From a virus (taxonomy: Duplodnaviria > Caudoviricetes), in the IMG/VR virus record IMGVR_UViG_3300023227_000027, positions 1-25,557 of that record: a stretch of DNA of 25,557 nt; one strand, 5' to 3'. Below are positions 10,537 to 24,118 of this stretch, one piece after another. Position 1 is the stretch's first letter. Each line of letters starts with the position of its first letter. Below the pieces are notes generated by a model that ran no database searches, was not told the origin of the DNA, and worked only from the letters and a program-made list of their open reading frames with translations. A program made the translations under genes and the position numbers.

Positions 10537-10643
10537 TTCGATTTTGGATTTTGGATTGCGGAATGTGGATTGCTGGGAGGCAGAGCAGTTATGTGGAACT
10601 CAGAAAGAAATTCAGGAAACGGAAGGAACGGACTGTGAGGCAG
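10537..10643. repeat. Heptamer tandem repeat (GATTTTG-like) followed by a REP-like arm
   Basis: GATTTTG GATTTTG GATTGCG GAATGTG GATTG, then TTATGTGGAA (10589) and CGGACTGTGAGGCAG (10629). Confidence 0.6.
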
Positions 10644-10851
10644 GATCGTGGTCGGCGAGCTGGGCGGTAAACCCCACATCGCGGCAGTTGTCGCAGTAAA
10701 TCTTCACTTGATTTGGTTCGGTAGGTTCCCAATCGGCCATCATATCATCGCCCTCTTCGAGCTCGACCACTCGGCCGCAGGTCGGGCAGGTTAATATCAG
10801 TCCGACCCACCACTTCCCGATCTGCGCACTTCCTTCTTTAATGATTTTCAT
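10612..10851 (-). CDS. Small zinc-ribbon protein
   Basis: CPTC...CDNC, 79 aa from ATG 10851, flanked by inverted REP-like arms. Confidence 0.55.
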   Translation of the reverse strand: MKIIKEGSAQIGKWWVGLILTCPTCGRVVELEEGDDMMADWEPTEPNQVKIYCDNCRDVGFTAQLADHDPASQSVPSVS

Positions 10852-10862
10852 AATTCCGTTTG

Positions 10863-10898
10863 TGCCTTGTTTCCTGATTTTCCAGCTTTCCACATAAA
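10863..10898. repeat. REP-like repeat arm
   Basis: TGCCTTGTTTCCTGATTTTCCAGCTTTCCACATAAA, an inverted relative of 3733-3760. Confidence 0.7.
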
Positions 10899-10923
10899 GC
10901 GCGTTGCCTCTCGGTTCCGGGCT

Positions 10924-12942
10924 TCATGCGGCGTTTTCTCCGTAGTCTTCGGTCTCGGCGAGGATGAGGTATTTCACGAGATCGATAAAATCCTTGCAGG
11001 CGCCTTTCTGGCCGTCTTCCCCGGTCCAGTTCTGCAGCGCAAAGATTAAGTTTTTGCATTCCTTGGCGATATAGAGCCGCGGGCAATTCAAGCTATCGAT
11101 CGGCTGCCCCTCATCGTAGTCCAGGAGATCATTGATCAAGTGCACCCAATGCACCTTGGTATCATCGGCATAGGCGCCGCCGCTCGCGGGCACAAACTCC
11201 ATGCCGAGCTCATCGAGCTCCTCGAGCAGGGTGGTCGAGCCCTCGCGCTGCTGCGTGGGATGCGCGGCCGCGCGGCTGTCTAAGATCCGTGAATACACAT
11301 CCTCCCCCTGCTCAGGGCGGCGCTTGCGCTTCCTGATCGGCGTATATTCGGGGGTATCATCCTTATCCCACTGGAAAGGTTTATCATCGAGCACGACCTC
11401 CTCCCAATCGGTGCGACCTTCGAGCCGGTAGATCTCGCGCAGGTAGCGATTCAGGCCCCAGCCGAGCGCCGTTTGCGCGGGGCCTTTGGCGCCATCGTGC
11501 TTTTCGCCCGGCACCGCCCACTCGCCCATATCGCCCACGCCCGGCACGTAGCGGCCGGGGCAAGGGCTCTCGCGATAAATGTAATACGTTTTCCCGCGCG
11601 GCGTATCGAGCACGCGGCACCAGAGCATCGCCCAATTACGACCGCTGCACGGATCGACCACCATATAAGCCGTGCCCGCGCGCGGCATCTGCTCGCCGGC
11701 CATCGCGGCGTGCACGGCGGGATTGAATCGCGGAAATTTCCCCGAGATCGATTTCTCCGCGAGCCCGTAAAACCGCATGAGCTTATCCGCCGTAGGTGAA
11801 TCTTTATAGAGCGCCACGAGCTCGGGCGCATTGCCATACGCATTGTCGAAACTGTGAAAGAAGAACACGCCGGATCTCTCATCATCGATCGCCATCACCC
11901 GCGGCACCTTGCGAAATTCACGGCCTGGCGCCGGCGCGGGTTGGCTCGGGCGCCCCTCCGCAAGCGCGATCAAATCCTGCCCGGCGAGCGTGAGCTCGAG
12001 ATCGGGCTCCCCACCATCGGCCGGGCACATATACGCCGTGCCCTCGGCGGTCGTGGTCGCGCGGTCGAGAAACATTTTAACCGTGGGCGAGTAGCCACCG
12101 GCCGCGGTGCCGAGCTCGCCGACCGGGGTAAAGGTAATCAACAACCAGCCCGCACGAGTCGCCACGCGAGCCTTGAGCGTTTCGATCCAGGAGGCCGGCA
12201 CCAGCTCATCGCACCAGACCACATCCAACTCGCCGCCCTCGATCTTGGCCGCATCCTGCTCGTAGTAGCGAAACGATAAATCACTGCGATTCGGCCACAC
12301 GAGCTTCTCCTCCGAGAAACCCGTCTGCTGCTTGTAGGCAATGTAGGCCGGGTTGAGGCGGATACCCTTCTCCGTGCGCAGCTCGGCCGGAATATATTTA
12401 TAAATCAGCGGCTGCTGATAGTCGCGACTCATGCTCGCATCCTGGTGAAAAGCCCAGGCGCGCGCCCCGGCCTTAAACTGCAAGAGCTTGTTTACCCGAC
12501 TTGCGGCCCACTCGCTCTTGCCGCCCCGATTGCCGCCATTAAGCAGCAGGATCTTGATCGGCGCATCGCGCTTGAGCAACCGGCGCCGCACCGCCAGCGC
12601 CCAATCCTGCTTGGCCTGGAGCTCCTCGCGCTCGGTGATCGACTTCGCGGTGAGAATCATTTCCCGCGACGGATCCTCCCAGGGGAAACCGCACAACGCA
12701 TCGAGCACCTTCCACGATCCGGGCTCGAAACCATACCGCGCCGGATCGGCCTGCATCCGGTGAATCGTCTCCTCGCGCTCATTCAAAAACTCGAGCAAAG
12801 CCCCCACGCTATTCGCGCGCAGCCAAGCCTCATCCGGCAACGGTGCCACCGGGTGCGGAGTCACGCCCAGCAAGGCCCAAACGTCCGAGGACCAGGCTTC
12901 ACCCGGGGCCAACAAAGGAGCTGTTTGATCAGAGAGATTCAT
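10924..12942 (-). CDS. terL: Terminase large subunit
   Basis: Walker A GGNRGGKS, Walker B VVWCDE, coupling motif ITFTP, nuclease motifs MVVDP and C-terminal KDFID. Upstream of the portal gene. Confidence 0.9.
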   Translation of the reverse strand: MNLSDQTAPLLAPGEAWSSDVWALLGVTPHPVAPLPDEAWLRANSVGALLEFLNEREETIHRMQADPARYGFEPGSWKVLDALCGFPWEDPSREMILTAKSITEREELQAKQDWALAVRRRLLKRDAPIKILLLNGGNRGGKSEWAASRVNKLLQFKAGARAWAFHQDASMSRDYQQPLIYKYIPAELRTEKGIRLNPAYIAYKQQTGFSEEKLVWPNRSDLSFRYYEQDAAKIEGGELDVVWCDELVPASWIETLKARVATRAGWLLITFTPVGELGTAAGGYSPTVKMFLDRATTTAEGTAYMCPADGGEPDLELTLAGQDLIALAEGRPSQPAPAPGREFRKVPRVMAIDDERSGVFFFHSFDNAYGNAPELVALYKDSPTADKLMRFYGLAEKSISGKFPRFNPAVHAAMAGEQMPRAGTAYMVVDPCSGRNWAMLWCRVLDTPRGKTYYIYRESPCPGRYVPGVGDMGEWAVPGEKHDGAKGPAQTALGWGLNRYLREIYRLEGRTDWEEVVLDDKPFQWDKDDTPEYTPIRKRKRRPEQGEDVYSRILDSRAAAHPTQQREGSTTLLEELDELGMEFVPASGGAYADDTKVHWVHLINDLLDYDEGQPIDSLNCPRLYIAKECKNLIFALQNWTGEDGQKGACKDFIDLVKYLILAETEDYGENAA

Positions 12943-12984
12943 GCTCGAAAATTCGGAATAGGATTTATATGGAAATCAGGAAAA

Positions 12985-13332
12985 TCAGGAAACGATCCGA
13001 AAGGAATTATCGGGCAGATAGTTAGCCAGCACCGCCGCGACCTTGCGGCCCGCCAGCGTAGGCGAGACCGTGAGCCCACCCCACGGATCGCGCACCGTGC
13101 GCAGCTTGACCTTAACTCCATCATCGAGACACCGGATCGTGAGCTCGAAACCGGAAGGCTTCGCCGCGGGCATCTTGCAATGCGAAGTATCGGGCAGCAC
13201 ATCCGGGAGCGCGAGCCGCTCTATGCGCTTGCGCTCCTTGGCGGCGCGCATCTTAGCAAACCGAGCCGCGCGGCAGCAGTTCTTACTCCGGTGCAAAGAT
13301 TTGCGTCTTACCTGTGTGTTTAGGTGTGGCAT
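12985..13332 (-). CDS. Basic hypothetical protein upstream of terL
   Basis: 115-aa Arg/Lys-rich ORF starting 2 nt after the TGA at 13335. Confidence 0.55.
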   Translation of the reverse strand: MPHLNTQVRRKSLHRSKNCCRAARFAKMRAAKERKRIERLALPDVLPDTSHCKMPAAKPSGFELTIRCLDDGVKVKLRTVRDPWGGLTVSPTLAGRKVAAVLANYLPDNSFRIVS

Positions 13333-13334
13333 AT

Positions 13335-13532
13335 TCAGTTGTTCGATCCGCCTGAGCGTTTCTGTTTTTTTGGGCGGATGGCGCGGAGCGCCAAGACAGC
13401 CTCTTCGGTGATTCGCTGATCACCAGTCTCTCGGCGGCTGATGCTTTCGCGGGGCACACCCAAGAGGGCGGCAAGCCCGGCCTGCGTGAGGCCGAGCTTT
13501 TCGCGGGTCGCTTTATAGTCGTCGGGGCTCAC
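13335..13532 (-). CDS. XRE/Cro-type HTH protein (cassette 1)
   Basis: REKLGLTQAGLAALLGVPRESISRRETG is a classic HTH_3 signature. Its stop lies in phage DNA beyond the cassette boundary. Confidence 0.85.
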   Translation of the reverse strand: MSPDDYKATREKLGLTQAGLAALLGVPRESISRRETGDQRITEEAVLALRAIRPKKQKRSGGSNN

Positions 13533-13765
13533 AGGTCAATGTATCCGCTGTTGTAGCTGTCCGTCGCCGCGTCACCGCGATAGCCGACGTTGGACGCTGC
13601 CTGCTTCGCGGTGATCGCTCTCGCACCGCAAGCGGCACTGTTTACATCTCCATCGCTCTCATGTCGATCCACCCACTCGTCGCGCTCAATCTTGGATTTG
13701 AAGCGGTAGGTATTCATTTCGTTCGCGAATCCACGGGGGGATTTTTCGGCGTAATAGTGTTTCAT
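13529..13765 (-). CDS. Hypothetical protein (cassette 1), coupled to the HTH gene
   Basis: 78 aa from ATG 13765 after an A-rich leader, with a 4-nt overlap into the HTH gene. Confidence 0.65.
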   Translation of the reverse strand: MKHYYAEKSPRGFANEMNTYRFKSKIERDEWVDRHESDGDVNSAACGARAITAKQAASNVGYRGDAATDSYNSGYIDL

Positions 13766-13802
13766 TTTATATATTTGTTTTTGGTGAGGCTTGATTACCT
13801 CG

Positions 13803-13839
13803 ATGTGACATAGTGTGCATATGCTCACATTATGCGCAA
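13803..13839 (-). promoter_or_regulatory. Putative sigma70-type promoter with overlapping palindromic operator
   Basis: Minus-strand TTGCGC-18 nt-CACTAT in AT-rich DNA. Inverted repeat ATGTGA(13803)...TCACAT(13825) and a GCATATGC palindrome overlap it. Confidence 0.5.
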
Positions 13840-13889
13840 GCTTTATTTGTGATATTTCTCACTTTTATTTTGAGCACGTAAATGAGCGG

Positions 13890-13948
13890 ATCGAACCAGT
13901 CAGCCAGAGTTAACTCGCTTCGCTCGCACCTCAGCTGAGTTGTTCGTC
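13890..13948 (+). repeat. attC-like site 1 (59 bp)
   Basis: R'' ATCGAAC pairs with the cassette-start core GTTCGAT (13341; match extends to 11 bp). TCAGC/GCTGA arms, TCGCTTCGCTCG centre, R' GTTCGTC. Confidence 0.9.
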
Positions 13949-14215
13949 TCAGTAGTGGGTCTTTATGTTCTTCAGCATCGTCACGCGCCCTACAAATACT
14001 TTGCTTTCATCGTGCCTTCCGTCGGCTTCATGTAGCTGCGTGACCTCATCACTCGCCTCCTTTAGCGCCTCGGCCTCAGTGTCAAAATATGAAACATTTG
14101 GATAATACGGGTGATCTGAAACCATAACCCATTTAGACGAACCAGACACTTCACCCAACTCCTCACGGCGGGCTGGCACTTCGGCGGGTAATGTCTCGAT
14201 AGTTTCTTGTTTCAT
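13949..14215 (-). CDS. Hypothetical protein (cassette 2)
   Basis: 88 aa. GAAAGGA RBS and ATG lie inside attC2, and the stop abuts the core of attC1. Confidence 0.7.
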   Translation of the reverse strand: MKQETIETLPAEVPARREELGEVSGSSKWVMVSDHPYYPNVSYFDTEAEALKEASDEVTQLHEADGRHDESKVFVGRVTMLKNIKTHY

Positions 14216-14261
14216 TTTGATCCTTTCGGTGGTTCGTCGTCGGGTGAGTTAGATGTTCTAC
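14136..14261 (+). repeat. attC-like site 2 (126 bp)
   Basis: R'' GACGAAC is the reverse complement of GTTCGTC (13942). TCACCC/GGGTGA arms, R' GTTCTAC. Confidence 0.85.
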
Positions 14262-14497
14262 TGCCCGATTGCGGCCAGTTTTGCGCGTTGCTTGGCCCCT
14301 ACGTGTGGAACGTGACGTGATCGAGTCTGCTTCGTTAGCACCTTACCTAGTTTGCTGCGGTGATCGTGAGGGCTGACCTGCATGCCTGTTTTCTGCTTTG
14401 GGGTCGCGTCTTTCATGTCGACGGGAACGAAGTTGCGTATAAAGGCTGATGACTGTGTCATTTCTTCTTGAGTTAATTGTCCTGATGGAACGTGCAT
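14258..14497 (-). CDS. Hypothetical protein (cassette 3)
   Basis: 79 aa, with its TAG stop inside the core GTTCTAC. Confidence 0.6.
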   Translation of the reverse strand: MHVPSGQLTQEEMTQSSAFIRNFVPVDMKDATPKQKTGMQVSPHDHRSKLGKVLTKQTRSRHVPHVGAKQRAKLAAIGQ

Positions 14498-14526
14498 TAT
14501 TATATAGTTGAGGGTTTGATTACGGG

Positions 14527-15294
14527 TTAAATTTCGGAGGTAGAACCATCGTTTCGAGACAACCTCGCTTCGCTCGGCGTCTCACACGAACTGTTCTGCT
14601 TCAAAAATTCACGGCCCACGTATTCCGTGTAAGCGGGCGGTATTCCTAGCGAGAGTTCGCTGAGTGTTAAATTCCAATCGACCTGCATGTGTTCCTTTTG
14701 CACCGCGAGCGGGACGCGATACTCTCCCACGTTGCACACCGTCCGACCGTTGGGGCGGTTCGTCGATCCGGGGAAGATTCGGGCAGTGAATCGCTTGTGA
14801 TCGCACGGCACTGGATCAATCAGGAAACTCGCCTCAAACAGTCGATGTCGCCGCACCCTAATTCCGAACGATGTCCCGCACAGTTGGACGGGATCTTTCA
14901 GCGGAGCTCCTGGGACGTTCTCCATAACCCAATGCTTGCCGCTCGCAACCAGTGCTTGCCGGGTCGGCTCGATCATATCCGGCCATTTCGGTTTGTGCCC
15001 CGGTCGGCAATTCCGATAGACTGTGAATGTCTGGCACGGCGGACTTGCGTGAATCACGTCGTATTCGTGCCCGTGAGCTCGCAGATATTCCAACGCATCA
15101 CCTTGAATGAACGTGTGGGGATTGTTTGGCTGAGGGTTGATGTCCACCCCTACAATGTCGAATCCGGCTCGGCGGTAGCCTTCCCCTGCACAACCAGCCC
15201 CGCAAAACAGATCAAGCAGAACAAGACGGTGCTGACCAACCTGCTTGGCGCTAGGTGTCGGCGTTTCGTTTTCGATTATACCCTGTTTATTCAT
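14527..15294 (-). CDS. C5-cytosine DNA methyltransferase-like protein (cassette 4)
   Basis: Motif I LDLFCGAG, motif IV ASPPCQ, motif VI MENV and RxR (RRHR). Short phage-type enzyme with no cognate nuclease seen. Confidence 0.85.
   Translation of the reverse strand: MNKQGIIENETPTPSAKQVGQHRLVLLDLFCGAGCAGEGYRRAGFDIVGVDINPQPNNPHTFIQGDALEYLRAHGHEYDVIHASPPCQTFTVYRNCRPGHKPKWPDMIEPTRQALVASGKHWVMENVPGAPLKDPVQLCGTSFGIRVRRHRLFEASFLIDPVPCDHKRFTARIFPGSTNRPNGRTVCNVGEYRVPLAVQKEHMQVDWNLTLSELSLGIPPAYTEYVGREFLKQNSSCETPSEARLSRNDGSTSEI
14540..14599 (+). repeat. attC-like site 3 (60 bp), near-identical to site 15
   Basis: R'' GTAGAAC matches GTTCTAC (14255). GAGAC/GTCTC arms, R' GTTCTGC. Confidence 0.9.
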
Positions 15295-15348
15295 TCGTTT
15301 AACCCTGTTTGGTTGTTCGTCGCAGGTGGCAGACCTGAAGCGTTCTGT
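15216..15348 (+). repeat. attC-like site 4 (133 bp)
   Basis: R'' GCAGAAC matches GTTCTGC (14593). CTGACCAACCTGC/GCAGGTGGCAG arms, R' GTTCTGT. Confidence 0.85.
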
Positions 15349-15671
15349 CTCTTGAGTTCGATGATTTCACATGCCGCTTGGACACCTCGATTAAATCGGT
15401 AGTATTTATCGGAGCCTTGTTCGTATGGATTATCGCTGAATGAGCCATCCTTACACTTCCCTGTCTCGTATCCTTCGCGCTGCACGGGATCGGCTAGATC
15501 ACAGACTATCGCGTTGGGCATAATTTTATATTTATAGGTGGGAGGTGGCTTGATAGGTCGCTTGCTACGCATCGCGGCAGCATGTCCTGCTGCGTATCCT
15601 CTTCGATAATCGGATACAGAACCAGTCGCTAGTGTGGAACGCGATTGCTCGCAGTGTGTTTTATCGGGCAT
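15291..15671 (-). CDS. Hypothetical protein (cassette 5)
   Basis: 126 aa with YRRGYAAG and NPY..YYRFNRG motifs. Starts in attC5 and stops in attC4 with an ATGA overlap. Confidence 0.7.
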   Translation of the reverse strand: MPDKTHCEQSRSTLATGSVSDYRRGYAAGHAAAMRSKRPIKPPPTYKYKIMPNAIVCDLADPVQREGYETGKCKDGSFSDNPYEQGSDKYYRFNRGVQAACEIIELKRQNASGLPPATNNQTGLNE

Positions 15672-15738
15672 GGTATTTTATTCGGTTGAGGGTTTCGAGG
15701 CCGCGATCTCGTCGCGTCCCACATCTCGGTCGTTCGAC
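15616..15738 (+). repeat. attC-like site 5 (123-bp family)
   Basis: R'' ACAGAAC matches GTTCTGT (15342). TGTGGAACGCGA/TCGCGTCCCACA arms, R' GTTCGAC. Confidence 0.9.
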
Positions 15739-16061
15739 TGTGCGGGTTCATTGGTAATCGTTTCGGCCTGTCGAATGTATCGAAAAGCTGTTTCGTGCCG
15801 TGTTTCATTCGGCCATTTTTGAGATACGGCATAAATCAAATCATAGTATTTTGCCTCCAATTGTTCAATTTCGTCTGCGGCTTTTACCATGAGTTCATCG
15901 GTCGCGATTTCGTCCACAGTGGACATTTCTCCACAGTCGCCAGACCAGCGTCGCGGAGTTTGAATTGCGCCCTCGCGTAGTCGCTCAACTAGAGTCGAAC
16001 CCACAGCCAGAGCCAACGAGGCCGACTGTCCTTTTTCGGGTGATTGATTTGGTGTATTCAT
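15678..16061 (-). CDS. Hypothetical protein (cassette 6)
   Basis: 127 aa with a phage-type LVERLR...AADEIEQL motif. Starts in attC6 and stops in attC5. Confidence 0.7.
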   Translation of the reverse strand: MNTPNQSPEKGQSASLALAVGSTLVERLREGAIQTPRRWSGDCGEMSTVDEIATDELMVKAADEIEQLEAKYYDLIYAVSQKWPNETRHETAFRYIRQAETITNEPAQSNDRDVGRDEIAASKPSTE

Positions 16062-16106
16062 ATCAGGTATTACTTCGGGCCTCGTTGCTCATCAGAACCG
16101 TTAGGC
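15994..16106 (+). repeat. attC-like site 6 (113-bp family)
   Basis: R'' GTCGAAC matches GTTCGAC (15732). GAGCCAACGAGGCC/GGCCTCGTTGCTC arms with one extra base, canonical R' GTTAGGC. Confidence 0.9.
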
Positions 16107-16119
16107 AAAGAAAGATCCG

Positions 16120-16566
16120 ATGCGCAGCGAGTATTCAAAGGAAGAAGAGAATCGTTGGTATTCGCTCGGCGAGTCAGTCGCTCTTGCCATCCCATATCTC
16201 CCTTGGACAGCAGCTCCCTGGCTACGGCCAGCGACAACTGATGCCGATTTGCCAGCGCGCGTTCAGGCGTTTGAGCTGATCGAACGGCCCCACGTCGCGC
16301 GCATCGAAGCAGCCGTTGAGCAGTGGCTTCGAGACCAGAAGCCACCCGTATTAGAAGAAGAGCCCATGTTTTTCTTTTCATTACGATTTCAGGTTGTCGG
16401 TTCTTTACTGATGTCATTCCGTTTATTGGCTGATGCGCTGCCATATCCAGCCGACATTTCGGAGCGTGAGATCGCGCATCGTTGGCTGATCGATTGGTGG
16501 CGCGATAGTGGGGCCTTCCACGGAGTTGGCCACACCTCTGCGGAGCACGAAGGAGAGCCTAACTAG
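16120..16566 (+). CDS. Hypothetical protein in a canonically oriented cassette (cassette 7)
   Basis: ATG 13 nt after GTTAGGC, and the ORF ends ...EPN* across R'' GCCTAAC-TAG, the textbook cassette layout. Confidence 0.75.
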   Translation: MRSEYSKEEENRWYSLGESVALAIPYLPWTAAPWLRPATTDADLPARVQAFELIERPHVARIEAAVEQWLRDQKPPVLEEEPMFFFSLRFQVVGSLLMSFRLLADALPYPADISEREIAHRWLIDWWRDSGAFHGVGHTSAEHEGEPN

Positions 16567-16667
16567 ACGCCACAGCGCAACGCGGGCAGCTGTCCGATAT
16601 TCGCAAGCATCACCGCAATCATGATCTCTCCTCCTTTGGCCCGCGTGGCTCAGCTTTAACGTAGGAT
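16557..16667 (+). repeat. attC-like site 7 (111 bp)
   Basis: Canonical R'' GCCTAAC matches GTTAGGC (16100). ACGCGGGC/GCCCGCGT arms, atypical R' GTAGGAT. Confidence 0.85.
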
Positions 16668-17035
16668 TTTCGGGCAAAGAACCTCTTGATTTTCTCTGCA
16701 TCTTCCGGCGAAGAGGTTTGCAGCATGAGGGCTTTGAATTTCGCCATACTCAGCTTTTCTACATTTTTATCGTATATTTTTTGCACACGCACGAGAGCGG
16801 TCACTCGCCATCCCGTATGCGTTTCCTCGTTCACCAGTCCTGCGAATCCGTCGATTTTACTTTGCTTCCAGTGACGCGGTGGCTTCACCAACAATTGGCG
16901 CGGAGGCGGCACGATAATCGTGTATCTTACCGTGCCGTCATTAGTTCCAGCCGTGGTGCAGTTCGTGTCCGTGCAGTATGATATTAAGTAATCCCTGCTA
17001 GTCGCGGTCGCAGTTGTCTGATCGTATGTTCCCAT
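16619..17035 (-). CDS. Hypothetical protein (cassette 8)
   Basis: ORF fills the cassette. Likely ATG at 17035 (alternative TTG 17065). Stops inside attC7. Confidence 0.65.
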   Translation of the reverse strand: MGTYDQTTATATSRDYLISYCTDTNCTTAGTNDGTVRYTIIVPPPRQLLVKPPRHWKQSKIDGFAGLVNEETHTGWRVTALVRVQKIYDKNVEKLSMAKFKALMLQTSSPEDAEKIKRFFARKSYVKAEPRGPKEERS

Positions 17036-17042
17036 AGTATTT

Positions 17043-17147
17043 ATCCTACCAGCGATTCGAGACAAGCCGCCTCACGCCGCTGGTTTGCGCGAGAGCTTGG
17101 TGTTGTTTAAAGATTATTGGTTGGCTGTCTCACTCGGGTTGTTCGCG
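17043..17147 (+). repeat. attC-like site 8 (105 bp, TAC core variant)
   Basis: R'' ATCCTAC matches GTAGGAT (16661). GAGACAAGCC/GGCTGTCTC arms, R' GTTCGCG. Confidence 0.85.
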
Positions 17148-17425
17148 GAAAGAGCATCGCGGGCGCAGTTTTCGAGCAGCCCGGCGAGCCATGTCGTATT
17201 CTCCCCGAACCAAAGGCAGGCGCACGCGCCCTCATTAAGCATGGTGCCGCTCGGGAGTTTCTTCGGTGGTTGGACACCAGTTCCAGAGCACCGTTTGCAA
17301 TCGGGAGTTGGCGGGTAATGCAGTCGGTCTTCAGGGAAGCGGGCGCGAAGCTCCGCTAACAAATCCACAGAGCCAACGCCGTTGGCGTTTTCCTTGAGGG
17401 GCGGCGTTGTAGTGGCGTGGCTCAT
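17114..17425 (-). CDS. Cys-rich zinc-finger-like protein (cassette 9)
   Basis: CKRCSGTG...CAC motif. Likely ATG 17425 inside attC9, stop in attC8. Confidence 0.65.
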   Translation of the reverse strand: MSHATTTPPLKENANGVGSVDLLAELRARFPEDRLHYPPTPDCKRCSGTGVQPPKKLPSGTMLNEGACACLWFGENTTWLAGLLENCARDALSANNPSETANQ

Positions 17426-17438
17426 GTCAGGGTTCGCG
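17354..17438 (+). repeat. attC-like site 9 (85 bp)
   Basis: R'' CGCTAAC versus GTTCGCG (17141), 6/7 complementary. GAGCCAACGCC/GGCGTGGCTC arms, R' GTTCGCG. Confidence 0.85.
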
Positions 17439-18035
17439 CTATTCGAGAGCGCCGGACATTTGTTGCATAGTTTCATAGTCGCATCCTGTGTTTTCCATGT
17501 CCGATCGCCCCGAGAAGAATTGTCCCGCGCCAAGTATTGAGAAGGGGTCGCCATCATTCGGATTCCAGATTCCTTCCTCGATCATCCATGCCATGCGATA
17601 GAGTGCGCACAGCATTCGAGCGCCGTCCTTGCCGTATTTCCCCTCTGAGAATGATTTCTTTCTGGTGTAGCCATTCACGGTCAGCGACGCTTTCCATCTT
17701 ACGCACACCTGGCCTGTCCCTGGTCGGTCAAGACGCTTCGAGATTCCGCCAGTCATGCGCGTCATGCAGCCACGCCGGTAACGCCCCTTTGTAGAGTATA
17801 GGCGCTGTTTAGACTTTCTCGCCGGGCGTAAATCTAGTAGTCGTTTGAGTTCCGATTTGAGTTCTGAAATTTTACGCGCAGCATTTTTACTCCTCACGCC
17901 AGCACCTTTATCGTAGTAGTTTAATGCACATCTTACCCGATGCAGTTCGGAGGCAAGACGCGAACGAGGCGAGACAGCCAACCCGATTGGGCGCTGCTGG
18001 TTACTCGCGGGAGATTTAAGGTCGTCGGTAGTCAT
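17439..18035 (-). CDS. AP2-like DNA-binding domain protein (cassette 10)
   Basis: WKASLTVNG..KKSFSEGKYG..A...A..R resembles phage/bacterial AP2 domains. No HNH motif seen. Confidence 0.6.
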   Translation of the reverse strand: MTTDDLKSPASNQQRPIGLAVSPRSRLASELHRVRCALNYYDKGAGVRSKNAARKISELKSELKRLLDLRPARKSKQRLYSTKGRYRRGCMTRMTGGISKRLDRPGTGQVCVRWKASLTVNGYTRKKSFSEGKYGKDGARMLCALYRMAWMIEEGIWNPNDGDPFSILGAGQFFSGRSDMENTGCDYETMQQMSGALE

Positions 18036-18065
18036 TGGTCGGGTTGGCTGCTCTTGATGTTCGAC
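17959..18065 (+). repeat. attC-like site 10 (107 bp)
   Basis: R'' CGCGAAC matches GTTCGCG (17432). CAGCCAACCCGA/TCGGGTTGGCTG arms, R' GTTCGAC. Confidence 0.9.
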
Positions 18066-18358
18066 GAAAGAATTTCTAGGAACTCCCGAATCTTTGGCCT
18101 TAGATATTTATCGCGCACTCTTTCGACCACACAGATGTGCCCGTGGTGCTTTTCCTCCCATCGGCGGCAGTGGCTCCCGTATAGGTCTAGCAGGTCGTGA
18201 AAATTGTAGAGATTGATTTCGTCGGAAGCTTCAGCGTCCCACTTAAAAAACCAATACTGCTCCAGGTCTTCTTGGCTTTGCTTAGCTAAGTCATCATCGA
18301 GCGATTGAGCCAAAGATGTTATCGTGTTTTCTATATCTGTTTCGGTTACTTGTGTCAT
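18032..18358 (-). CDS. Hypothetical protein (cassette 11)
   Basis: 108 aa, stops in attC10 with an ATGA overlap to the next gene. Confidence 0.7.
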   Translation of the reverse strand: MTQVTETDIENTITSLAQSLDDDLAKQSQEDLEQYWFFKWDAEASDEINLYNFHDLLDLYGSHCRRWEEKHHGHICVVERVRDKYLRPKIREFLEILSSNIKSSQPDQ

Positions 18359-18382
18359 AGTGTTTTCGTTATGTCAGTTAGG

Positions 18383-18442
18383 GTCGAACGAGTCAGAGCT
18401 AGCAATTTCGCTCCGCTCAATCGCTAGTCTTTCATGTTCGGA
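18383..18442 (+). repeat. attC-like site 11 (60 bp)
   Basis: R'' GTCGAAC matches GTTCGAC (18059). CTAGC/GCTAG arms, R' GTTCGGA. Confidence 0.85.
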
Positions 18443-18624
18443 AGAAATAGCGGAGTGATGCACCCCTCTTCGCATCTGCGGCAATAGAGAGTGTATCCAC
18501 GAGGCTCTATCTTACTTGGATAAAGTTCCGCGAACTCGTGTTGTTTACAGGTTGGGCAAACCGGAATTTCCGAACCAGTCGCTGGTGTGGAACGCGATTG
18601 CTCGCTTTGGATTTTATCACTCAT
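18424..18624 (-). CDS. Small zinc-ribbon protein (cassette 12)
   Basis: CPTC...CRRC. Starts in attC12 and stops in attC11. Confidence 0.65.
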   Translation of the reverse strand: MSDKIQSEQSRSTPATGSEIPVCPTCKQHEFAELYPSKIEPRGYTLYCRRCEEGCITPLFLPNMKD

Positions 18625-18691
18625 GTTATTTTAATCGGTTGATTGCTTCGTGGCCGCGCACTCGTCGCGTCCCACATCTCTATTGTTCTGC
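18569..18691 (+). repeat. attC-like site 12 (123-bp family)
   Basis: R'' TCCGAAC matches GTTCGGA (18436). Same arms as site 5, R' GTTCTGC. Confidence 0.9.
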
Positions 18692-19032
18692 CACTTCGCA
18701 TTGAAGTCGTTCATCATCTGTTCATCGGCAAATCCCATCCATGTTTCACCATTCACGGTTGCGCCTCCGCTATGCCATTTCCCCGCCTTGCCGTGGATTG
18801 GCCACGCTTCGGGGCCGCAGTATTCACGACACCACTCCATGACGTTCTGCCAGCGTTGAGAGTTTATGCTGTCCGTGTATGCCTCCACCATCCAAGGCGT
18901 TCCATCCCACACTTTATGCGTGAGATCGTCCGTTGAGTCATAGGCCATGACGCGATGATAAAGAGCAGAACCAACAGCCAGAGCCCACGAGGCCGACTGT
19001 CCTTTTTCGGGTGTTTCATTTGGTGTATTCAT
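18631..19032 (-). CDS. Trp-rich hypothetical protein (cassette 13)
   Basis: Start reassigned to ATG 19032 by homology of its N-terminus (MNTPN..PEKGQSAS.ALAVGS) to the cassette 6 gene. Confidence 0.7.
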   Translation of the reverse strand: MNTPNETPEKGQSASWALAVGSALYHRVMAYDSTDDLTHKVWDGTPWMVEAYTDSINSQRWQNVMEWCREYCGPEAWPIHGKAGKWHSGGATVNGETWMGFADEQMMNDFNAKWQNNRDVGRDECAATKQSTD

Positions 19033-19077
19033 GTTCTTAGTTTTTCGGGCCTCGTTGCTCATCTGAGCTGGTTCTGC
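18965..19077 (+). repeat. attC-like site 13 (113-bp family)
   Basis: R'' GCAGAAC matches GTTCTGC (18685). Arms like site 6, R' GTTCTGC. Confidence 0.9.
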
Positions 19078-19370
19078 GATGATTCGGCCATCGGGGTTAT
19101 CGTGAGGGTTTGATCCCTTGCGCCGTCGTCGATCCATGTGAATCCGTCGAGCTTGCAGGCGTCCTTCACGCCCATGAGTCGGCCTAGTGTGTTCACTCCC
19201 GAGACTGTTACTCGGGCTAGTTCTAGATAGTCTGCGAGTTCCTCTAAGCATATAGGCAGTCTATCCTTGGGGACTTCCAGGAGGTCCATTACATGGTTGA
19301 TCGTATATCCGGGAGCAGAACCAGTCGCTGGTGTGGAACGCGATTGCTCGCCCTGTGTTTGAGTAGGCAT
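19059..19370 (-). CDS. Hypothetical protein (cassette 14)
   Basis: 103 aa, starts in attC14 and stops in attC13. Confidence 0.7.
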   Translation of the reverse strand: MPTQTQGEQSRSTPATGSAPGYTINHVMDLLEVPKDRLPICLEELADYLELARVTVSGVNTLGRLMGVKDACKLDGFTWIDDGARDQTLTITPMAESSQNQLR

Positions 19371-19437
19371 ATTATTTTAGGAGGTTGATTGTTTCGTGAG
19401 CGCGTTCTCGTCGCGTCCCACATCTCGGTCGTTCTAC
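19315..19437 (+). repeat. attC-like site 14 (123-bp family)
   Basis: R'' GCAGAAC matches GTTCTGC (19071). Same arms as sites 5 and 12, R' GTTCTAC. Confidence 0.9.
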
Positions 19438-19757
19438 CCACCGCCGTTGCTGTAGTCGTTGGCGATTATCTCAGGAATCTTGGCGCATAGCACCTCATCG
19501 CAATAGTTGCCGTCGTCTTGTTGATACGCCCTCTTGCCAATTTCCTTCCCGCACTTCTCAAGCAGTCCACGGTAGTAGTCCGTGTTTCGTTGATTCTGTG
19601 CGGCGGTGTCCATCCAGTTTGCGATTCGACGTGCTACTGATTCCGCGAGCACGGTATCCATTTCTATGTGCTTCGTCTCTTCGTCGCACCAACATTGAGC
19701 GGCCATTTGACGCGCTTCTTCCATCCAAGTTTCGGGAGTTGTTGTTGTTGTATTCAT
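19434..19757 (-). CDS. Hypothetical protein (cassette 15)
   Basis: 107 aa, with its TAG stop inside the core GTTCTAC. Confidence 0.7.
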   Translation of the reverse strand: MNTTTTTPETWMEEARQMAAQCWCDEETKHIEMDTVLAESVARRIANWMDTAAQNQRNTDYYRGLLEKCGKEIGKRAYQQDDGNYCDEVLCAKIPEIIANDYSNGGG

Positions 19758-19771
19758 TGTATTATTACGGG

Positions 19772-20314
19772 TTAAAATTCGGAGGTAGAACCATCGTTTC
19801 GAGACAACCTCGCTTCGCTCGGCGTCTCACACGAACTGTTCTCTCTAAGAGATTTGGGGTTCATCACGAGGACTGACTCGCAGTCCCATCCATAGAGGCT
19901 GTGTGGGCGAGCGAAGCGGGTTTCCTGTTGGCCTCTCTCGGTCAGATACACGGCGTCGATTCCGCTCATCTCTAACGGTTGGAACAACGGGAAACTCCAA
20001 TTAGGCATCAGTTCGACCCACGGGAGTTGATCCCTCGCGTCTTCCAGCGAGTCGATGACAAGCGCCACCCCCTCAAATTCAATATCGAAATGGGTTGATA
20101 GATCACCGAACGATTCAGCATCGCACCACTCACGCCATCCGTAATTGCACCCCACGGGGGATGCCCAGAATCCCCCACGAGGTTTCACTAAATGATCGTC
20201 CGTAATCGGTTTGAACTTCGACGGGTCGTATTGACGCGCACCGTAATGCCGCAAGGAGAGAACAAGTCGCTGCTGAGCAACCGCCGGAGCGGTGGAGTTT
20301 TCTTTTGTATTCAT
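19772..20314 (-). CDS. Hypothetical protein (cassette 16), possibly ADP-ribosyltransferase-like fold
   Basis: Start ATG 20314 inside attC16 (ATGA overlap). Motifs LRHYG, KPRGGFWASP and WDCESVLVMNP. The fold is an inference only. Confidence 0.65.
   Translation of the reverse strand: MNTKENSTAPAVAQQRLVLSLRHYGARQYDPSKFKPITDDHLVKPRGGFWASPVGCNYGWREWCDAESFGDLSTHFDIEFEGVALVIDSLEDARDQLPWVELMPNWSFPLFQPLEMSGIDAVYLTERGQQETRFARPHSLYGWDCESVLVMNPKSLRENSSCETPSEARLSRNDGSTSEF
19785..19844 (+). repeat. attC-like site 15 (60 bp), near-identical to site 3
   Basis: R'' GTAGAAC matches GTTCTAC (19431), R' GTTCTCT. 19764-19842 equals 14519-14597 with one mismatch. Confidence 0.9.
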
Positions 20315-20356
20315 AGTCTTGGGCGCTCCGTCTGTGGCAGAGCTTGAGCGTTCTGT
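20257..20356 (+). repeat. attC-like site 16 (100 bp), right end of the array
   Basis: R'' AGAGAAC matches GTTCTCT (19838). CGGAGCG/CGCTCCG inner arms, R' GTTCTGT running into phage DNA. Confidence 0.85.
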
Positions 20357-20631
20357 GATTCCATGCGCTGCCAGATCCGCCGGATCGCGGTTTGACCCAC
20401 CCCAAACTCCAATGCCAGGCACTTGCGCTCTTCGAGCGAGCCCGCAGTGGCCCGCAGGCGGGATTGGATCTGCGCCCGCTCATCGGGATCGAGCCGCTTC
20501 GAGTAAATGCCGGGCTCCTCGTGCAACGCGCCGCCGCCGGTGCGCATGAGGCCCGGACAGTAGCGAGCAATCAGCGACTGGCACCGGGTCGCCGTGCTGT
20601 AATCATCGGAGTGAGCGTAGGAGGTAATCAT
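20311..20631 (-). CDS. Phage protein with C-terminal HTH; its 3' end is the array insertion site
   Basis: KCLALEFGVGQTAIRRIW is HTH-like. The last 12 codons come from attC16. Confidence 0.65.
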   Translation of the reverse strand: MITSYAHSDDYSTATRCQSLIARYCPGLMRTGGGALHEEPGIYSKRLDPDERAQIQSRLRATAGSLEERKCLALEFGVGQTAIRRIWQRMESQNAQALPQTERPRL

Positions 20632-20633
20632 GG

Positions 20634-20670
20634 TTCGATTTTGGAGCTTAGATTTCGGGTTTTGGAGTTC
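20634..20670. repeat. Degenerate heptamer tandem repeat
   Basis: GATTTTG GAGCTTA GATTTCG GGTTTTG GAG, related to 21535-21569 and 10540-10572. Confidence 0.55.
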
Positions 20671-20941
20671 AGTCGCCCGCCGCGGTGATCGCGGCTTGCA
20701 AGCGGTTTATTAAGATCGGGCTCACGTAGTAGCCGTTGAGAGATTCTTGCTTGTCGGCCGCGATCGCCATCGCCACCGCCAGGAGTTCGCGCCGCGTTGT
20801 CATGAGGCGCCGCGCCGAGAGCTGCAGCTTTTCCGCCGGCTCATCGCCGCGGAGATTAAGCTCCGAAGTCACGCAGCCCAGGCGCTTCGTGGAAGAGAGA
20901 AAGAGAGCCGAAAGCTCGGCATGTTCGGCGGGATCAATCAT
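20669..20941 (-). CDS. Hypothetical protein
   Basis: 90 aa from ATG 20941, overlapping the upstream stop. Confidence 0.6.
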   Translation of the reverse strand: MIDPAEHAELSALFLSSTKRLGCVTSELNLRGDEPAEKLQLSARRLMTTRRELLAVAMAIAADKQESLNGYYVSPILINRLQAAITAAGD

Positions 20942-21533
20942 CTTTGAATCCCAGGATTTTATGCCAAAAATACTTGGCACAGAAATGCGCGGTCAGACAC
21001 ACCGACCACCACCACACATGCGTGACGTAGCTCGCCTGCCAGATCGGCCGCGAGCCCAGCACATAGGCATAACGGATCGGCTCGCCGTCCTCGTGGTGAT
21101 GGCGCAAGCACAGATTATTTTTCGAGCGCGCGGTGCTACTCGAAGACCATACGCCAAACTCGGCATCGAGGAGCGGCGGCCGGCCGCGATAGATCCAATC
21201 GCGCAACACATTGCCGGTGCTGCCCCCCTTGAGCGTGAGGTGCCGGGCTTCGCCGGTCGTCACATCGAAATCCGCAAACAAGCAATCATGATCCTCCGAG
21301 GAGATATCCACCCCATCCTCCGTGCCCCCATTGACCACTGTGATCCGCGCAAACACTTCCGACAGGCGCCGGTAAAACTTGGCCGTATCTTGCCAGGTGC
21401 CGCGCAGCCAAAGCCGCCGGCCAAACTCATCCGTGGCCGGATCGCTCAACGGATCCAGCACCACATCGGTATGCGGTGGATCATCGCCGCCGCCATCCCA
21501 TGATCGGTAGTTTCTATCGTGTCGTGTGCTCAT
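20934..21533 (-). CDS. Hypothetical protein (possible beta-helix segment)
   Basis: 199-aa ORF in the operon. The EDGVDI...LTLKGGSTGNV pattern suggests a beta-helix. Confidence 0.55.
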   Translation of the reverse strand: MSTRHDRNYRSWDGGGDDPPHTDVVLDPLSDPATDEFGRRLWLRGTWQDTAKFYRRLSEVFARITVVNGGTEDGVDISSEDHDCLFADFDVTTGEARHLTLKGGSTGNVLRDWIYRGRPPLLDAEFGVWSSSSTARSKNNLCLRHHHEDGEPIRYAYVLGSRPIWQASYVTHVWWWSVCLTAHFCAKYFWHKILGFKDD

Positions 21534-21534
21534 T

Positions 21535-21634
21535 TGATTTTGGAGTTTAGATTGCAGATTTTGGATTTCACGGAGCCGTGAGGCAGAGAGTCGGGGTATT
21601 TAATCCGGTATTCATCTGTGTAATCCGTGGTTAA
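21535..21634. repeat. Heptamer repeat plus REP-like motifs
   Basis: GATTTTG GAGTTTA GATTGCA GATTTTG GATTT, then CGGAGCCGTGAGGCAG. 21614-21634 is a 19/21 inverted match to 3791-3811. Confidence 0.6.
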
Positions 21635-21828
21635 GATTCTGAGGTTTGAGGTTTTGAGAGATTGAGCTTCGAGGCATCGATCACGGCGCGGTTGATTTCA
21701 CCTGGGCCGGGATTGCTCCACTGCCACCAGAGCGAGCCGATCGCGCAATGCGGGCACTCGATAAATCCATGCACTCCGCTCAGCGTGCGCGGATCGCTGG
21801 CCTTGCCGCAGTCGGGGCAGATCTTCAC
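21631..21828 (-). CDS. Small zinc-ribbon protein
   Basis: CPDC...CPHC, with a GTGA overlap with the helicase stop. Confidence 0.6.
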   Translation of the reverse strand: MKICPDCGKASDPRTLSGVHGFIECPHCAIGSLWWQWSNPGPGEINRAVIDASKLNLSKPQTSES

Positions 21829-23390
21829 GAGCCACCTCCGAGGTATTTCGATTTATCGAATTTCACGCCATCGGCCACCGAGGGCGCGCGCGGCGCGGGC
21901 GCTGTTCCCGCCGGGCGCTTGTCGCCATGCGGCACAAATCGGGTGTAGCATTTCTCGAAGACGGCTTTGACCGCACTCGTGCGACCGGTGCGGCGCTTCT
22001 CCTGATACCACCAGACCTCGATCCGCACGAGGCCGGGCTGCACTTGCGAATTGCCCGCCGTATCTTCGGGCGGCATGTAGAGAAAGATCATGCGATCGGC
22101 ATCGTGATAGATGGCCTGGCTCTCGCGCAGATCGCCGCGGTGCGGCATGCGGTGGATCAGCTTGCCATCTTCGTCGTGCTTGGCCTGTCGAGATTCGGAG
22201 AGGCCGCTCTCATTGAGCTGCGCGGCGACCACCATCACACAATCGAGCTCGCGCTGCAGGGCTTGGAGCTGGTGCGAGACAAAGGCCACGCGGGCCTCGC
22301 TATTACTCAGGCCCTTCCGATCGGTATCGAAGATTTGCAGGTAATCGACCAGGATCACATCGGGCGTGCCGTGCAGGTGACACCAGGCGCGGGCATGCGA
22401 GCAGAGATCCTCGATCGTCGCCAGTGGCGAGGCCGCTTCGTTTTCGATACAGAAGAGGCGCTTATTCGCCCACTCCTCGATCATGCGTTCCATCTCGTCG
22501 GAAAAGGCTTTCTGGCGATCCACCGGCTGATCCTCGATATCGAGATCATACCCCACCTCGGCGCTCGCCATCATCTTGCAAAATCCTTTTACCCCCGTTT
22601 CCCGCACATAAGCCAGGACACGCTGCCCCTGGTGGAGCGAGGCCCGCGCGATCTGGCGCAGTGCCACACTCTTGCCGTGCCCGGAGCCGCCCCCGATCAC
22701 GATAAATTTATCATCGGCCCCACCGGCGCCAAAAGGTTTACACTGCGCATCGAAGCGCTCAAGCCCACTCGGCACCCAGCGACTGCGATCCACTTTGCCC
22801 GAGGCCAGCGCGAGCACTTCATCCTTGGCCGAATCGATCTTTTCCTCGAGGGATTGCTTCGCCGCCTTGCGCCCGAGCCCGATCAGCTTGCGGCCAATAT
22901 CCGCCGCGCTCTCGGCAAACTTATCGCGGGTCGAGAAATCAAGGGCCGATTCACGCAGACTCGCCGCGAGCTTCACCGTGTGGCGCATCTCCCAAAGCAG
23001 CACCACAAGCTCGGCATAATAGCGCGTATTGGCCGAGGTGCTCGCGCTGGCCGTCATTTCCGATAGGGCCTGCACACCGCCGATCTTCTCAAGATCGCCG
23101 CGCAGCTGCAGCTCTTCCGCCAGCACCGCCACATCGACCCCCGACTGCCCCGCCTGGCGCAGCTCGTGGATCAGCCCCCATACGAGGCCACTCGCGGGCT
23201 CGTAAAATGCCTTCGCCTTCACCCCGCAATTCACCGCGATCGCCCAGGCTTCGCCGGTATCATCGGCGATCACGCTCGAGATCAGCCGGTGCTCAGCCTC
23301 GATCGAGTGCGGCGGCGCCTGCCCGCCGATCACCTCGATCTCCTGCCCCGCAGGCCCGACGATATGCTCGACTCGTTTCTCGGCGCTCAT
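21825..23390 (-). CDS. dnaB: DnaB-like replicative helicase
   Basis: N-terminal PPHSIEAE, Walker A GGSGHGKS, Walker B ILVDYLQ, plus AAQLN, DLRES.AI..DAD and KRRTG motifs. Confidence 0.92.
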   Translation of the reverse strand: MSAEKRVEHIVGPAGQEIEVIGGQAPPHSIEAEHRLISSVIADDTGEAWAIAVNCGVKAKAFYEPASGLVWGLIHELRQAGQSGVDVAVLAEELQLRGDLEKIGGVQALSEMTASASTSANTRYYAELVVLLWEMRHTVKLAASLRESALDFSTRDKFAESAADIGRKLIGLGRKAAKQSLEEKIDSAKDEVLALASGKVDRSRWVPSGLERFDAQCKPFGAGGADDKFIVIGGGSGHGKSVALRQIARASLHQGQRVLAYVRETGVKGFCKMMASAEVGYDLDIEDQPVDRQKAFSDEMERMIEEWANKRLFCIENEAASPLATIEDLCSHARAWCHLHGTPDVILVDYLQIFDTDRKGLSNSEARVAFVSHQLQALQRELDCVMVVAAQLNESGLSESRQAKHDEDGKLIHRMPHRGDLRESQAIYHDADRMIFLYMPPEDTAGNSQVQPGLVRIEVWWYQEKRRTGRTSAVKAVFEKCYTRFVPHGDKRPAGTAPAPRAPSVADGVKFDKSKYLGGGS

Positions 23391-24118
23391 GATACCACCT
23401 CCACCCCGCCGGTGTGCGCATTGACCAACTTCGGATCAAACGGCACCGCGGGCGCCCCGCCGATAAATTTTTTGTCGGAACCAGAATTTCCCGAAGGCCC
23501 GAACTCGGTCGTGCGGCGCTGCCAATTCCGGCACGCGGCGCGCCAGTCTTTGATCGTGGTCTTGCCGCCTTGCTTCCAGCCATTGGCTGAGAAGTGATCG
23601 TGAAACTTCTCTGCTTCGAGTTTCGATAAGCTGATTGTCTCTGCATAGGAGATGACTTCTGCAAGATCTCTCGGCCGCTTTGCGGTCGCGACTACGCCTT
23701 CGACTACGTCTTCGGATACGACTACGACTGAGTGCGCATCTGCTTTCTTCTGCGTATCGCCTGATATTTCTTGCGTAGCATCTGCGATCATTGGCGCATC
23801 ACATGAGGGAAACTTGCTGGCAGAGCGCCTTTGTTGGCCGAAATTAACCACTTCCAAATAGTGTTTACCTTTTGATTCGTAGAGCTTTATCAGCTTCGCC
23901 TTGGCCACCTCGGCCAGCATCCGCTTGATCATCGGCTCTTTCACGCGGTCGATGCGCAAGGGATAGAGCGCCGCGCGCAGGAGCCCCGCATGCGCTTCCG
24001 TGCGCCCGTAATCGTCCACAATGGACAACAAGCGCCGGAAAAACACCTCACCCTCAACGGAAAGCTCGTTTATTTTCTCCGAAGTGAGGATCCCGGCTCT
24101 GATAATTCTGTTTGGCAT
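23387..24118 (-). CDS. Phage replication initiator / replisome organiser
   Basis: N-terminal NRII...VDDYGR and C-terminal FHDHFSANGW..G...KDWRAACRNW motifs. Coupled to the helicase gene. Confidence 0.75.
   Translation of the reverse strand: MPNRIIRAGILTSEKINELSVEGEVFFRRLLSIVDDYGRTEAHAGLLRAALYPLRIDRVKEPMIKRMLAEVAKAKLIKLYESKGKHYLEVVNFGQQRRSASKFPSCDAPMIADATQEISGDTQKKADAHSVVVVSEDVVEGVVATAKRPRDLAEVISYAETISLSKLEAEKFHDHFSANGWKQGGKTTIKDWRAACRNWQRRTTEFGPSGNSGSDKKFIGGAPAVPFDPKLVNAHTGGVEVVS

Follow-up and report, generated by a model that had tools for sequence, protein, structure and literature searches.

Integrons are bacterial gene-capture platforms, whose cassettes are read from one promoter at attI. 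The edge of an integron cassette lies inside the R' core, the start of the cassette is complementary to the inverse core of its own attC site, and attC sites are about 57–141 nt long. In T4-type phages, the promoter early stem-loop (PeSL) elements are promoter and terminator modules moved by homologous recombination, and they are not known to have AAC/GTT cores, own-cassette complementarity or a coding role. Here we describe an array of 16 units at positions 13341–20356 of a viral contig from a tailed phage (Duplodnaviria, Caudoviricetes; IMG/VR record IMGVR_UViG_3300023227_000027). The whole contig of 25,557 bp was analysed and is called the window below. The array is probably an integron-type array without an integrase gene, that is, a cluster of attC sites lacking an integron integrase (CALIN), in which a fixed reading phase at the crossover likely lets the cassettes be gained, lost and reordered without breaking translational termination and coupling.

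The array resembles integron cassettes in its palindromes of 59–133 nt with terminal AAC...GTT boxes, in the cassette edge inside the R' core, in the own-cassette complementarity, in the gain and loss of units at an attI-like end, and in its cargo, which includes a methyltransferase and a candidate helix-turn-helix (HTH)/toxin–antitoxin-like gene pair. It differs from them in that 15 of the 16 genes are on the bottom strand with attC before the gene, starts and leaders lie inside attC, 12 genes are without their own stop codon, the core is GTTCKRY and not GTTRRRY, and there is no intI, no Pc promoter and no recognisable attI structure. With PeSL it shares repeated hairpin junction modules beside small accessory genes in a phage hyperplastic region, which are thought to promote shuffling.

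CALINs have been reported in phage genomes (Qi, Rajabal, Ghaly, Tetu and Gillings 2023, PMC9892861), and IntI1 could use five of the six phage attC sites tested there (PMC9892861). As far as the accessible portion of that article goes, its phage CALINs are like the present array in having a cluster of attC sites in a phage without integrase and a DNA methyltransferase among the cassettes, and unlike it in that the figured examples have few sites (three attC and four open reading frames (ORFs) in TJE1) and the usual gene direction in TJE1 and PH101; nothing on crossover phase or stop-less genes was found in that portion. ORF-11 and ORF-18 of attI1 extend over the crossover and take an in-phase stop from the 7-bp core of the neighbouring cassette (Hanau-Bercot et al., summarised in PMC8876359). 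The same summary, in the part available, states that the nearby stop of ORF-11 supports translational coupling to the next gene, and that short ORFs inside attC have been proposed to help translation further downstream (PMC8876359). The 12 ORFs described here likewise span the crossover and receive an in-phase stop from the neighbour near the next start. In contrast, ORF-11 is, according to that part of the summary, one peptide of 11–18 aa at attI on the top strand, whereas here 12 full-length accessory genes on the bottom strand cross attC x attC junctions, and the stop is usually in the loop of the site and not in the core. In the accessible parts of the literature, no account was found of reversed cassettes whose stop-less genes all meet the crossover in a fixed phase. 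Phage CALINs and an in-phase stop across the crossover at attI1 are therefore known already; reversed stop-less cassettes in one phase are added here.

The junctions resemble integron attC sites

The initial annotation had placed the crossover at the plus-strand GTTC box (R') of each junction, with the R'' box not exchanged. The junctions have the form of an imperfect palindrome, GAAC...GTTC, and are numbered along the plus strand from S0, a lone R' box, to S15, with S8b between S8 and S9. The reverse complement of the R' 7-mer of one site was identical to the R'' 7-mer of the following site at 7 of 7 positions in 15 of the 16 pairs, and at 6 of 7 in the remaining one, while a perfect match between the R' and R'' boxes of a single site, taken in the existing array, was seen in one of 16. 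When the pairings were permuted 100,000 times, the mean was 1.6 perfect matches and the maximum was 8. This own-cassette complementarity indicates that the six bases after each G belong to the right-hand unit, with the hairpin at the right end of that unit. The odd junction at 16661, GTAGGAT, is paired with ATCCTAC in the own site of the next cassette and forms a compensatory pair. The cassettes thus delimited are 249–749 bp each, with edges between G and TT on the plus strand of 17 R' boxes. The cassette model was upheld by the complementarity, and also by a 601-bp variant and the homology breaks described below. GTT is present in 16 of the 17 R' boxes (GTA at 16661) and AAC in 14 of the 16 R'' boxes; the exceptions are TAC at 17043–17049, which pairs with GTA at 16661, and an ambiguous AAG/AAC at S8b.

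Each cassette was closed on itself in silico and subjected to unconstrained DNA folding. In these circularised cassettes, the bottom strand formed the terminal 7-bp R box in 15 of 16 cases and the top strand in 14 of 16, and the box was much rarer when the bases of the neighbour were left in place. In the fold, the R box is followed by an unpaired spacer or internal loop, then by a stem with bulges and finally by the variable loop. Scoring the arms of GAAC...GTTC pairs, with or without gaps, was also tried and set aside; these scores separated the sites poorly from shuffled sequences, whereas the complementarity rule separated them well. Rfam gave no match in the window at E≤1.

When the plus strand is taken as the integron top strand, fifteen of the 16 cassettes are reversed, with the gene on the bottom strand, and only the plus-strand ORF at 16120–16566 reads toward its own attC. 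Because the genes are on the integron bottom strand, each attC is at the 5' end of its own gene, and as a result of this backward orientation 12 genes continue through the swap point, all in the same frame. Eleven sites hold the start codon of their own gene and a leader of 17–29 aa that reads out through R''. The gene bodies extend flush to the far cassette end, and all 16 genes end flush with or across a box. With 16 sites plus a lone box and no tyrosine recombinase in the genome, the array agrees with the definition of a CALIN (at least two attC sites, no integrase nearby). It lacks the parts of a complete integron (intI, attI and Pc): no intI was found, S0 is a lone core, and a promoter and terminator scan gave no enrichment.

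Genes cross the junctions in one reading frame

The initial annotation stated that genes read through the crossover at 12 junctions with the core triplet as one codon. All 12 were confirmed (13341, 14593, 15342, 15732, 16661, 17141, 18059, 18436, 18685, 19071, 19838 and 20350), with AAC at 11 of them and TAC at 16661. The frame was judged from the difference between box position and stop coordinate, modulo 3, for the minus-strand ORF crossing the box. This value was 0 at all 12 boxes, and therefore the plus-strand GTT (GTA at 16661) is read as one sense codon, AAC (TAC). The TAG-AAC stops at 14255 and 19431 were found as annotated, with TAG being part of the box GTAGAAC (genes 14258–14497 and 19434–19757). 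The two stops annotated just outside the core are TGA at 13949 and TAG at 17439, each located 7 nt from the G of GTTC and flush with the 7-bp box. By type, the 17 R' boxes comprise 12 crossed in frame 0, two with an in-box frame-0 TAG, two with flush stops, and one (16100) facing the inverted cassette.

The 12 stop-less bodies end in ...G-AA, and the C completing the Asn codon, the tail and the stop come from the site of the next cassette. The tails have 2–22 aa beyond the crossover codon, and both families of tails shared by unrelated proteins were verified. As a background, internal sense GAAC occurs in this frame in 19 of 56 cases over all genes and in 12 of 31 cases over the array genes, i.e., 34–39%. 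The 12 crossing bodies are mutually unrelated by BLASTP (best E 0.04; 17-sequence database). From this measured background and the unrelated bodies, the probability of 12 out of 12 is about 2e-6 to 1e-5. The R'' boxes, which the initial annotation had used as a control for phase, do not serve as one. The R'' phase depends on how long the leader of each site is and so reflects the lineage of the site, and it is of little use as a control in either direction. The third R'' frame appeared only at 17353–17359, a possible alternative R'' of S8b, or in a 19-codon mini-ORF at 16622.

The borrowed stops lie close to the next starts

The ATGA overlaps at 15291, 18032 and 20311 and the 6-nt gaps at 15678 and 18631 were all present as annotated, and one more overlap was observed at 16619. 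For the 12 crossing ORFs, the stops are located from -4 to +78 nt from the next start, including the four ATGA overlaps, and translational coupling is predicted from this arrangement. The initial annotation had proposed that the ORFs would still end near the next start in any cassette order. The in-silico permutation agreed with this for 16 of 17 contexts, where frame 0 reaches a stop at most 4 nt beyond the next start or at most 134 nt short of it. A frame-0 stop ahead of the next start is also retained at S1, S2, S6 and S13, which are uncrossed at present. In frame 1, by contrast, translation would run on in frame into the next gene in 5 of 16 contexts (S0, S4, S9, S12 and S15), and in frame 2 the first stop lies more than 4 nt beyond the next start at 6 of 16 sites. 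Upstream of the array starts at 14497, 15671, 18624, 19370 and 19757, AT-rich runs (such as aaaatacc and aaataat) and no Shine-Dalgarno motifs were observed, which may hint at the host group.

Homologues carry different tails after the crossover codon

The initial annotation predicted homologues with other tails after the Asn, and these were found. The methyltransferase body (gene 14527–15294) carries seven different tails: it ends in KQN or KEN, followed by SSCET..., D, A, ND, REINHGG, AEISG... or K. Among 8,000 scored proteins, 7,915 matched at E≤0.001, and the alignment took in 15 of the 120 listed. The three closest homologues among the matches listed, with 73–87% identity in the aligned part, have the same body as far as ...EFLK(Q/E)N, after which they continue with D, A or ND; more distant homologues have ordinary ends. 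In contigs from other metagenomes, KQN is followed by REINHGG, AEISGLSAASAGYQSQGED or K. The DNA homology between the window and one of the related contigs, L013, extends only from box to box (14591–15224). In L013 and another contig, L017, two unrelated upstream genes cross AAC in frame into the common tail AESSHARREPT.DCNG.D; the L013 gene has the matched boxes GTTGGCC/GGCCAAC, and the pair of the L017 gene matches at 6 of 7 positions. In a third, unrelated contig, L014, a tRNA-like sequence was noticed at about 1290–1375, after two small genes downstream of the methyltransferase homologue.

The search with gene 19772–20314 yielded 37 proteins, including the query's own cluster, and its tail was absent from all 17 aligned homologues. 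In a contig of run X13, a run in which most of the array is uncovered, this body is followed by another sequence, whose frame 0 is open. The protein search with gene 15291–15671 matched only the gene itself.

A cassette variant and homology breaks lie at the boxes

The terminase of this phage was found at 100% identity in two IMG/VR contigs, one of which has 41,443 bp and is rated 98% complete. This 41-kb contig is 100% identical to the window over 927–13345 and 13938–23543, and it is without exactly one cassette of 601 bp (13337–13937), which is flanked by the 9-nt repeat AGTTGTTCG, with one copy at the R' box of S0 and the other at that of S1. The end points of the indel lie inside this repeat. 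Both forms are present in run X9, one in a contig joining 13336 to 13938 (depth 6.9) and the other in cassette-covering contigs (depth 3–4.8). The polymorphic cassette adjoins S0, and this lone box, whose neighbour is the gene upstream of the terminase, may be where an attI-like insertion point would be.

Contigs of other runs share a site with the window and then diverge after GTT at 13344, 15344, 18687 and 20353–20355. A third right flank at 13344 was found in run X17, and four other right flanks at 20353–20355 in runs X9, X13 and X14. At 16662 the divergence is after GT, where the variant of run X12 continues to the canonical GTTAGGC, and at 18687 the foreign right flank in run X12 continues after GTT with AGGA. 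Other contigs share the gene body and diverge at the box (15731 and 19837). Site S4 is found as a whole in foreign contexts on both sides, and on its R'' side the complete 7-mer is still within the homologous stretch, which ends at 15216. At six R' boxes, the shared sequence ends with GTT, GT or GTTC, from which the exact phosphodiester bond is not readable.

Loose ends at 13911 and 13944 were considered as S1 in a foreign context and rejected, as they are a paralogous site of the same phage. This extra attC-like site is in the left arm of the phage, outside the window (L003, on contig G001, about 3685–3765). It is 97% identical to S1 over 34 nt, is oppositely oriented and has a canonical GCTTAAC core; 27 nt separate its beginning from the stop of the preceding plus-strand ORF of 413 aa. 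Two further contigs were observed. One, of run X14 (depth 2.9, 35 nt on the shorter side), joins 16048 and 19784 on opposite strands; both positions are in similar leader sequences, and the joint could be an inversion junction or an assembly chimera. The other, of run X17, shares the 3' part of body 15678–16061 (15731–15901) and switches at 15901 to leader sequence like that of site family D3, which suggests a shorter variant of this gene.

Relatives of the array were sought in several collections. A blastn search against GenBank phages gave only matches at the level of the methyltransferase. Exact scans of IMG/VR with the arms of site families D1, D2 and D10 detected only the phage's own 41-kb contig, and a scan of a genome collection with the D10 arm gave no match. 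A 16-mer of S1 was found at 73 loci, with about 46 chance matches expected from a rough estimate of the collection size; one of the loci is the phage's own paralogous site. Matches to the centre of S1 in two alphaproteobacterial metagenome-assembled genomes were set aside as unrelated; they have near-identical local sequence with no GAAC/GTTC boxes or cassette context.

Sites, cassettes and genome setting

All sites are given on the plus strand and all genes are on the minus strand unless stated, and tails are given up to the stop codon. The lone R' box S0 (13341–13347, GTTCGAT) has no palindrome, is located 9 nt from the start of gene 12985–13332, and forms the attI-like edge; it is crossed by the HTH gene 13335–13532 with the tail NN. 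The polymorphic 601-bp cassette (13337–13937) contains this XRE-HTH gene, gene 13529–13765/13828 and site S1 (13890–13948, 59 nt). S1 is uncrossed, with gene 13949–14215 stopping (TGA) flush with its box. In the region 13335–13892, the two overlapping genes encode a protein of 78–99 aa without assigned function and a 65-aa XRE-type HTH protein, with an AT-rich stretch upstream; the layout is reminiscent of toxin–antitoxin cassettes with their own promoter, and the hit of the promoter scan there was merely a weak one on the plus strand.

S2 (14136–14261, 126 nt) holds the start of gene 13949–14215, and its R' box GTTCTAC gives the frame-0 TAG to gene 14258–14497. S3 (14540–14599, 60 nt, family D2) is crossed by the methyltransferase gene 14527–15294 with the tail NSSCETPSEARLSRNDGSTSEI. 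S4 (15216–15348, 133 nt, family D10) holds the methyltransferase start in an ATGA overlap and is crossed by 15291–15671 with the tail NASGLPPATNNQTGLNE, and S5 (15616–15738, 123 nt, family D1) holds the start of the latter gene and is crossed by 15678–16061 with the tail NDRDVGRDEIAASKPSTE. S6 (15994–16106, 113 nt, family D3) has the canonical core GTTAGGC and is uncrossed because the next cassette is inverted. That cassette has the canonical-orientation ORF (16120–16566, plus strand) with its own attC S7, and the ORF ends as CCT-AAC-TAG in the inverse core GCCTAAC.

S7 (16557–16667, 111 nt, R' GTAGGAT) is crossed as TAC by 16619–17035 with the tail YVKAEPRGPKEERS. The 19-codon mini-ORF (16563–16622, minus strand) is located here; its start is in an ATGA overlap with the stop of gene 16619–17035, and its TAG shares the palindrome CTAG with the stop of the plus-strand ORF 16120–16566. 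It resembles a leader stripped of its body once the neighbouring cassette came to lie inverted. S8 (17043–17147, 105 nt, R'' ATCCTAC) is crossed by 17114–17426/17476 with the tail NNPSETANQ. S8b (17344–17438, about 95 nt) has an ambiguous R'', CGCGAAG at 17344 or CGCTAAC at 17353, and gene 17439–18035 stops (TAG) flush with its box. S9 (17959–18065, 107 nt) holds the start of that gene in an ATGA overlap and is crossed by 18032–18358 with the tail NIKSSQPDQ.

S10 (18383–18442, 60 nt) is crossed by 18424–18624 with the tail NMKD, S11 (18569–18691, 123 nt, family D1) by 18631–19032 with the tail NNRDVGRDECAATKQSTD, and S12 (18965–19077, 113 nt, family D3) by 19059–19370 with the tail NQLR. The R' box GTTCTAC of S13 (19315–19437, 123 nt, family D1) gives the frame-0 TAG to gene 19434–19757. 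S14 (19785–19844, 60 nt, family D2) is crossed by 19772–20314 with the tail NSSCETPSEARLSRNDGSTSEF, and S15 (20257–20356, 100 nt, family D10) holds the start of that gene in an ATGA overlap and is crossed by 20311–20631 with the tail NAQALPQTERPRL.

The minus strand carries all large genes of the window. These include a replication initiator gene (23387–24118), a DnaB-like helicase gene (21825–23390), a terminase-like gene (10924–12942), a large gene without assigned function (8204–10405) and a major head protein gene (4971–5987). The array is located between the replication module and the terminase-like gene, and its genes run toward the latter. A further GAAC...GTTC pair at 10596–10728, between gene 8204–10405 and the terminase, has arms as similar as some array sites; it may be due to chance, since shuffled sequence scores alike. 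The runs containing the phage sequence are labelled as salt-lake metagenomes.

Discussion

In the mechanism that we propose, strand exchange would take place between G and TT, as in integrons, through an integron integrase that acts in trans and is encoded by the host or by another element. Selection would maintain the single phase; in the other frames a read-through would fuse to or overrun the next gene in 5–6 of 16 contexts. Ribosomes entering the hairpin at its 5' arm would unfold it and might thereby help the next start. We infer both the adaptive value of the phase and the recombinase from the layout of the array. Our confidence is evenly divided on the larger proposal that these units form a distinct reverse-polarity class of phage cassettes. 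In this class, attC would encode leader, start, stop and C-terminal tail, the exchange would split the Asn codon between AA and C, and all crossings would be in one phase; reshuffling of a one-directional operon by an integrase in trans would then keep translation coupled, with the C-termini set by the neighbour.

Several observations weigh against this interpretation of the array. No match to tyrosine recombinases (PF00589) was found at E≤1 in the 98%-complete 41-kb genome, and no recombinase domain in the other ORFs of the phage genome. Most boxes are RYMGAAC/GTTCKRY and do not conform to the full consensus RYYYAAC/GTTRRRY: their core has C, and not the purine of the integron consensus, at position 4. 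The exceptions that fit are GTTAGGC/GCCTAAC and GTAGGAT/ATCCTAC. Use of the GTTCKRY sites by an IntI-type recombinase is a prediction. The R'' crossings are themselves skewed in phase, with 9 of 11 reading GGT/CGT-TCN and two reading GTT-CTN. The upstream gene of L014 possibly crosses out of phase, as TTT-GAA-CTT with the split between GAA and C at the structural GAAC; neither candidate core has a matching leader box in this contig, and the cassette edge is not fixable there. The population evidence consists of assembled contigs and loose ends of 19–30 nt, not of reads, and the 601-bp indel, taken alone, could also arise by slippage between the 9-nt repeats. The public gene call for 15291–15671 is a 93-aa form without the leader, and the translation of tails such as ...KQNSSCETPSEAR, and of leaders, is predicted from the open frames, not demonstrated. 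Finally, S8b (context 17432) has no frame-0 stop and an in-frame ATG, so that any gene lacking its own stop would, at this site, be fused to the following one. S8b is the sole exception to the plug-and-play grammar of the initial annotation, which otherwise stood with respect to structure, permutation and tail change; we infer that this grammar was selected for being shuffle-proof.

The single phase of real cassettes could be a by-product of their genesis or compaction and not selected, which we regard as unlikely. In one version, cassettes would acquire their site during genesis at a set distance or phase relative to the end of the coding sequence, and in another only flush, compact cassettes would survive packaging limits. 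Compaction as such is suggested by the finding that all 16 genes end flush with or across a box, two of them with abutting stops in another frame, and the R'' phase following site lineage and the missing frame-0 stop in the S8b context are consistent with a by-product as well. A by-product does not readily account for one phase in 12 unrelated bodies with sites from several families, for the frame-0 stop that the uncrossed sites S1, S2, S6 and S13 keep before the next start, or for the fusions and overruns that the other frames would cause in 5–6 of 16 contexts.

It is very improbable that the palindromes are RNA-level or regulatory hairpins for coupling or attenuation that were spread by homologous recombination, with the 601-bp variant being a slippage deletion. 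The hairpins do enclose a stop, an AT-rich spacer and a start, the phage has no recombinase gene, and the indel is flanked by a 9-nt direct repeat. However, spread by homologous recombination does not predict the own-site complementarity of the outer six bases in 15 of 16 units, the sharp breaks right after GTT beside at least eight different foreign flanks, the canonical cores GTTAGGC/GCCTAAC and GTT followed by AGGA, or the compensatory GTA/TAC pair. Chance agreement, or an after-the-fact choice of boxes and ORFs, is hardly credible. The junctions had been picked by eye, 16661 has no GTT, and S0 and S8 have no obvious GAAC partner; but the complementarity rule fixes the boxes independently of the frame, including 16661 and S8, the probability is about 1e-5 or less against the measured background, and two further bodies in other contigs obey the rule.

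The integrase-less cassette array thus interpreted would be an integron recombination logic fitted into a phage operon in the opposite polarity, in which the recombination sites double as gene junctions. If the one-phase rule is selected, natural cassette shuffling would be frequent enough to shape coding sequence, and the array would be a natural design for order-independent, translationally coupled gene modules. Own-cassette core complementarity together with an in-frame AAC provides a signature with which such arrays can be searched for. The known traffic of accessory genes between phages would be widened by such cassettes, here with a cytosine methyltransferase.

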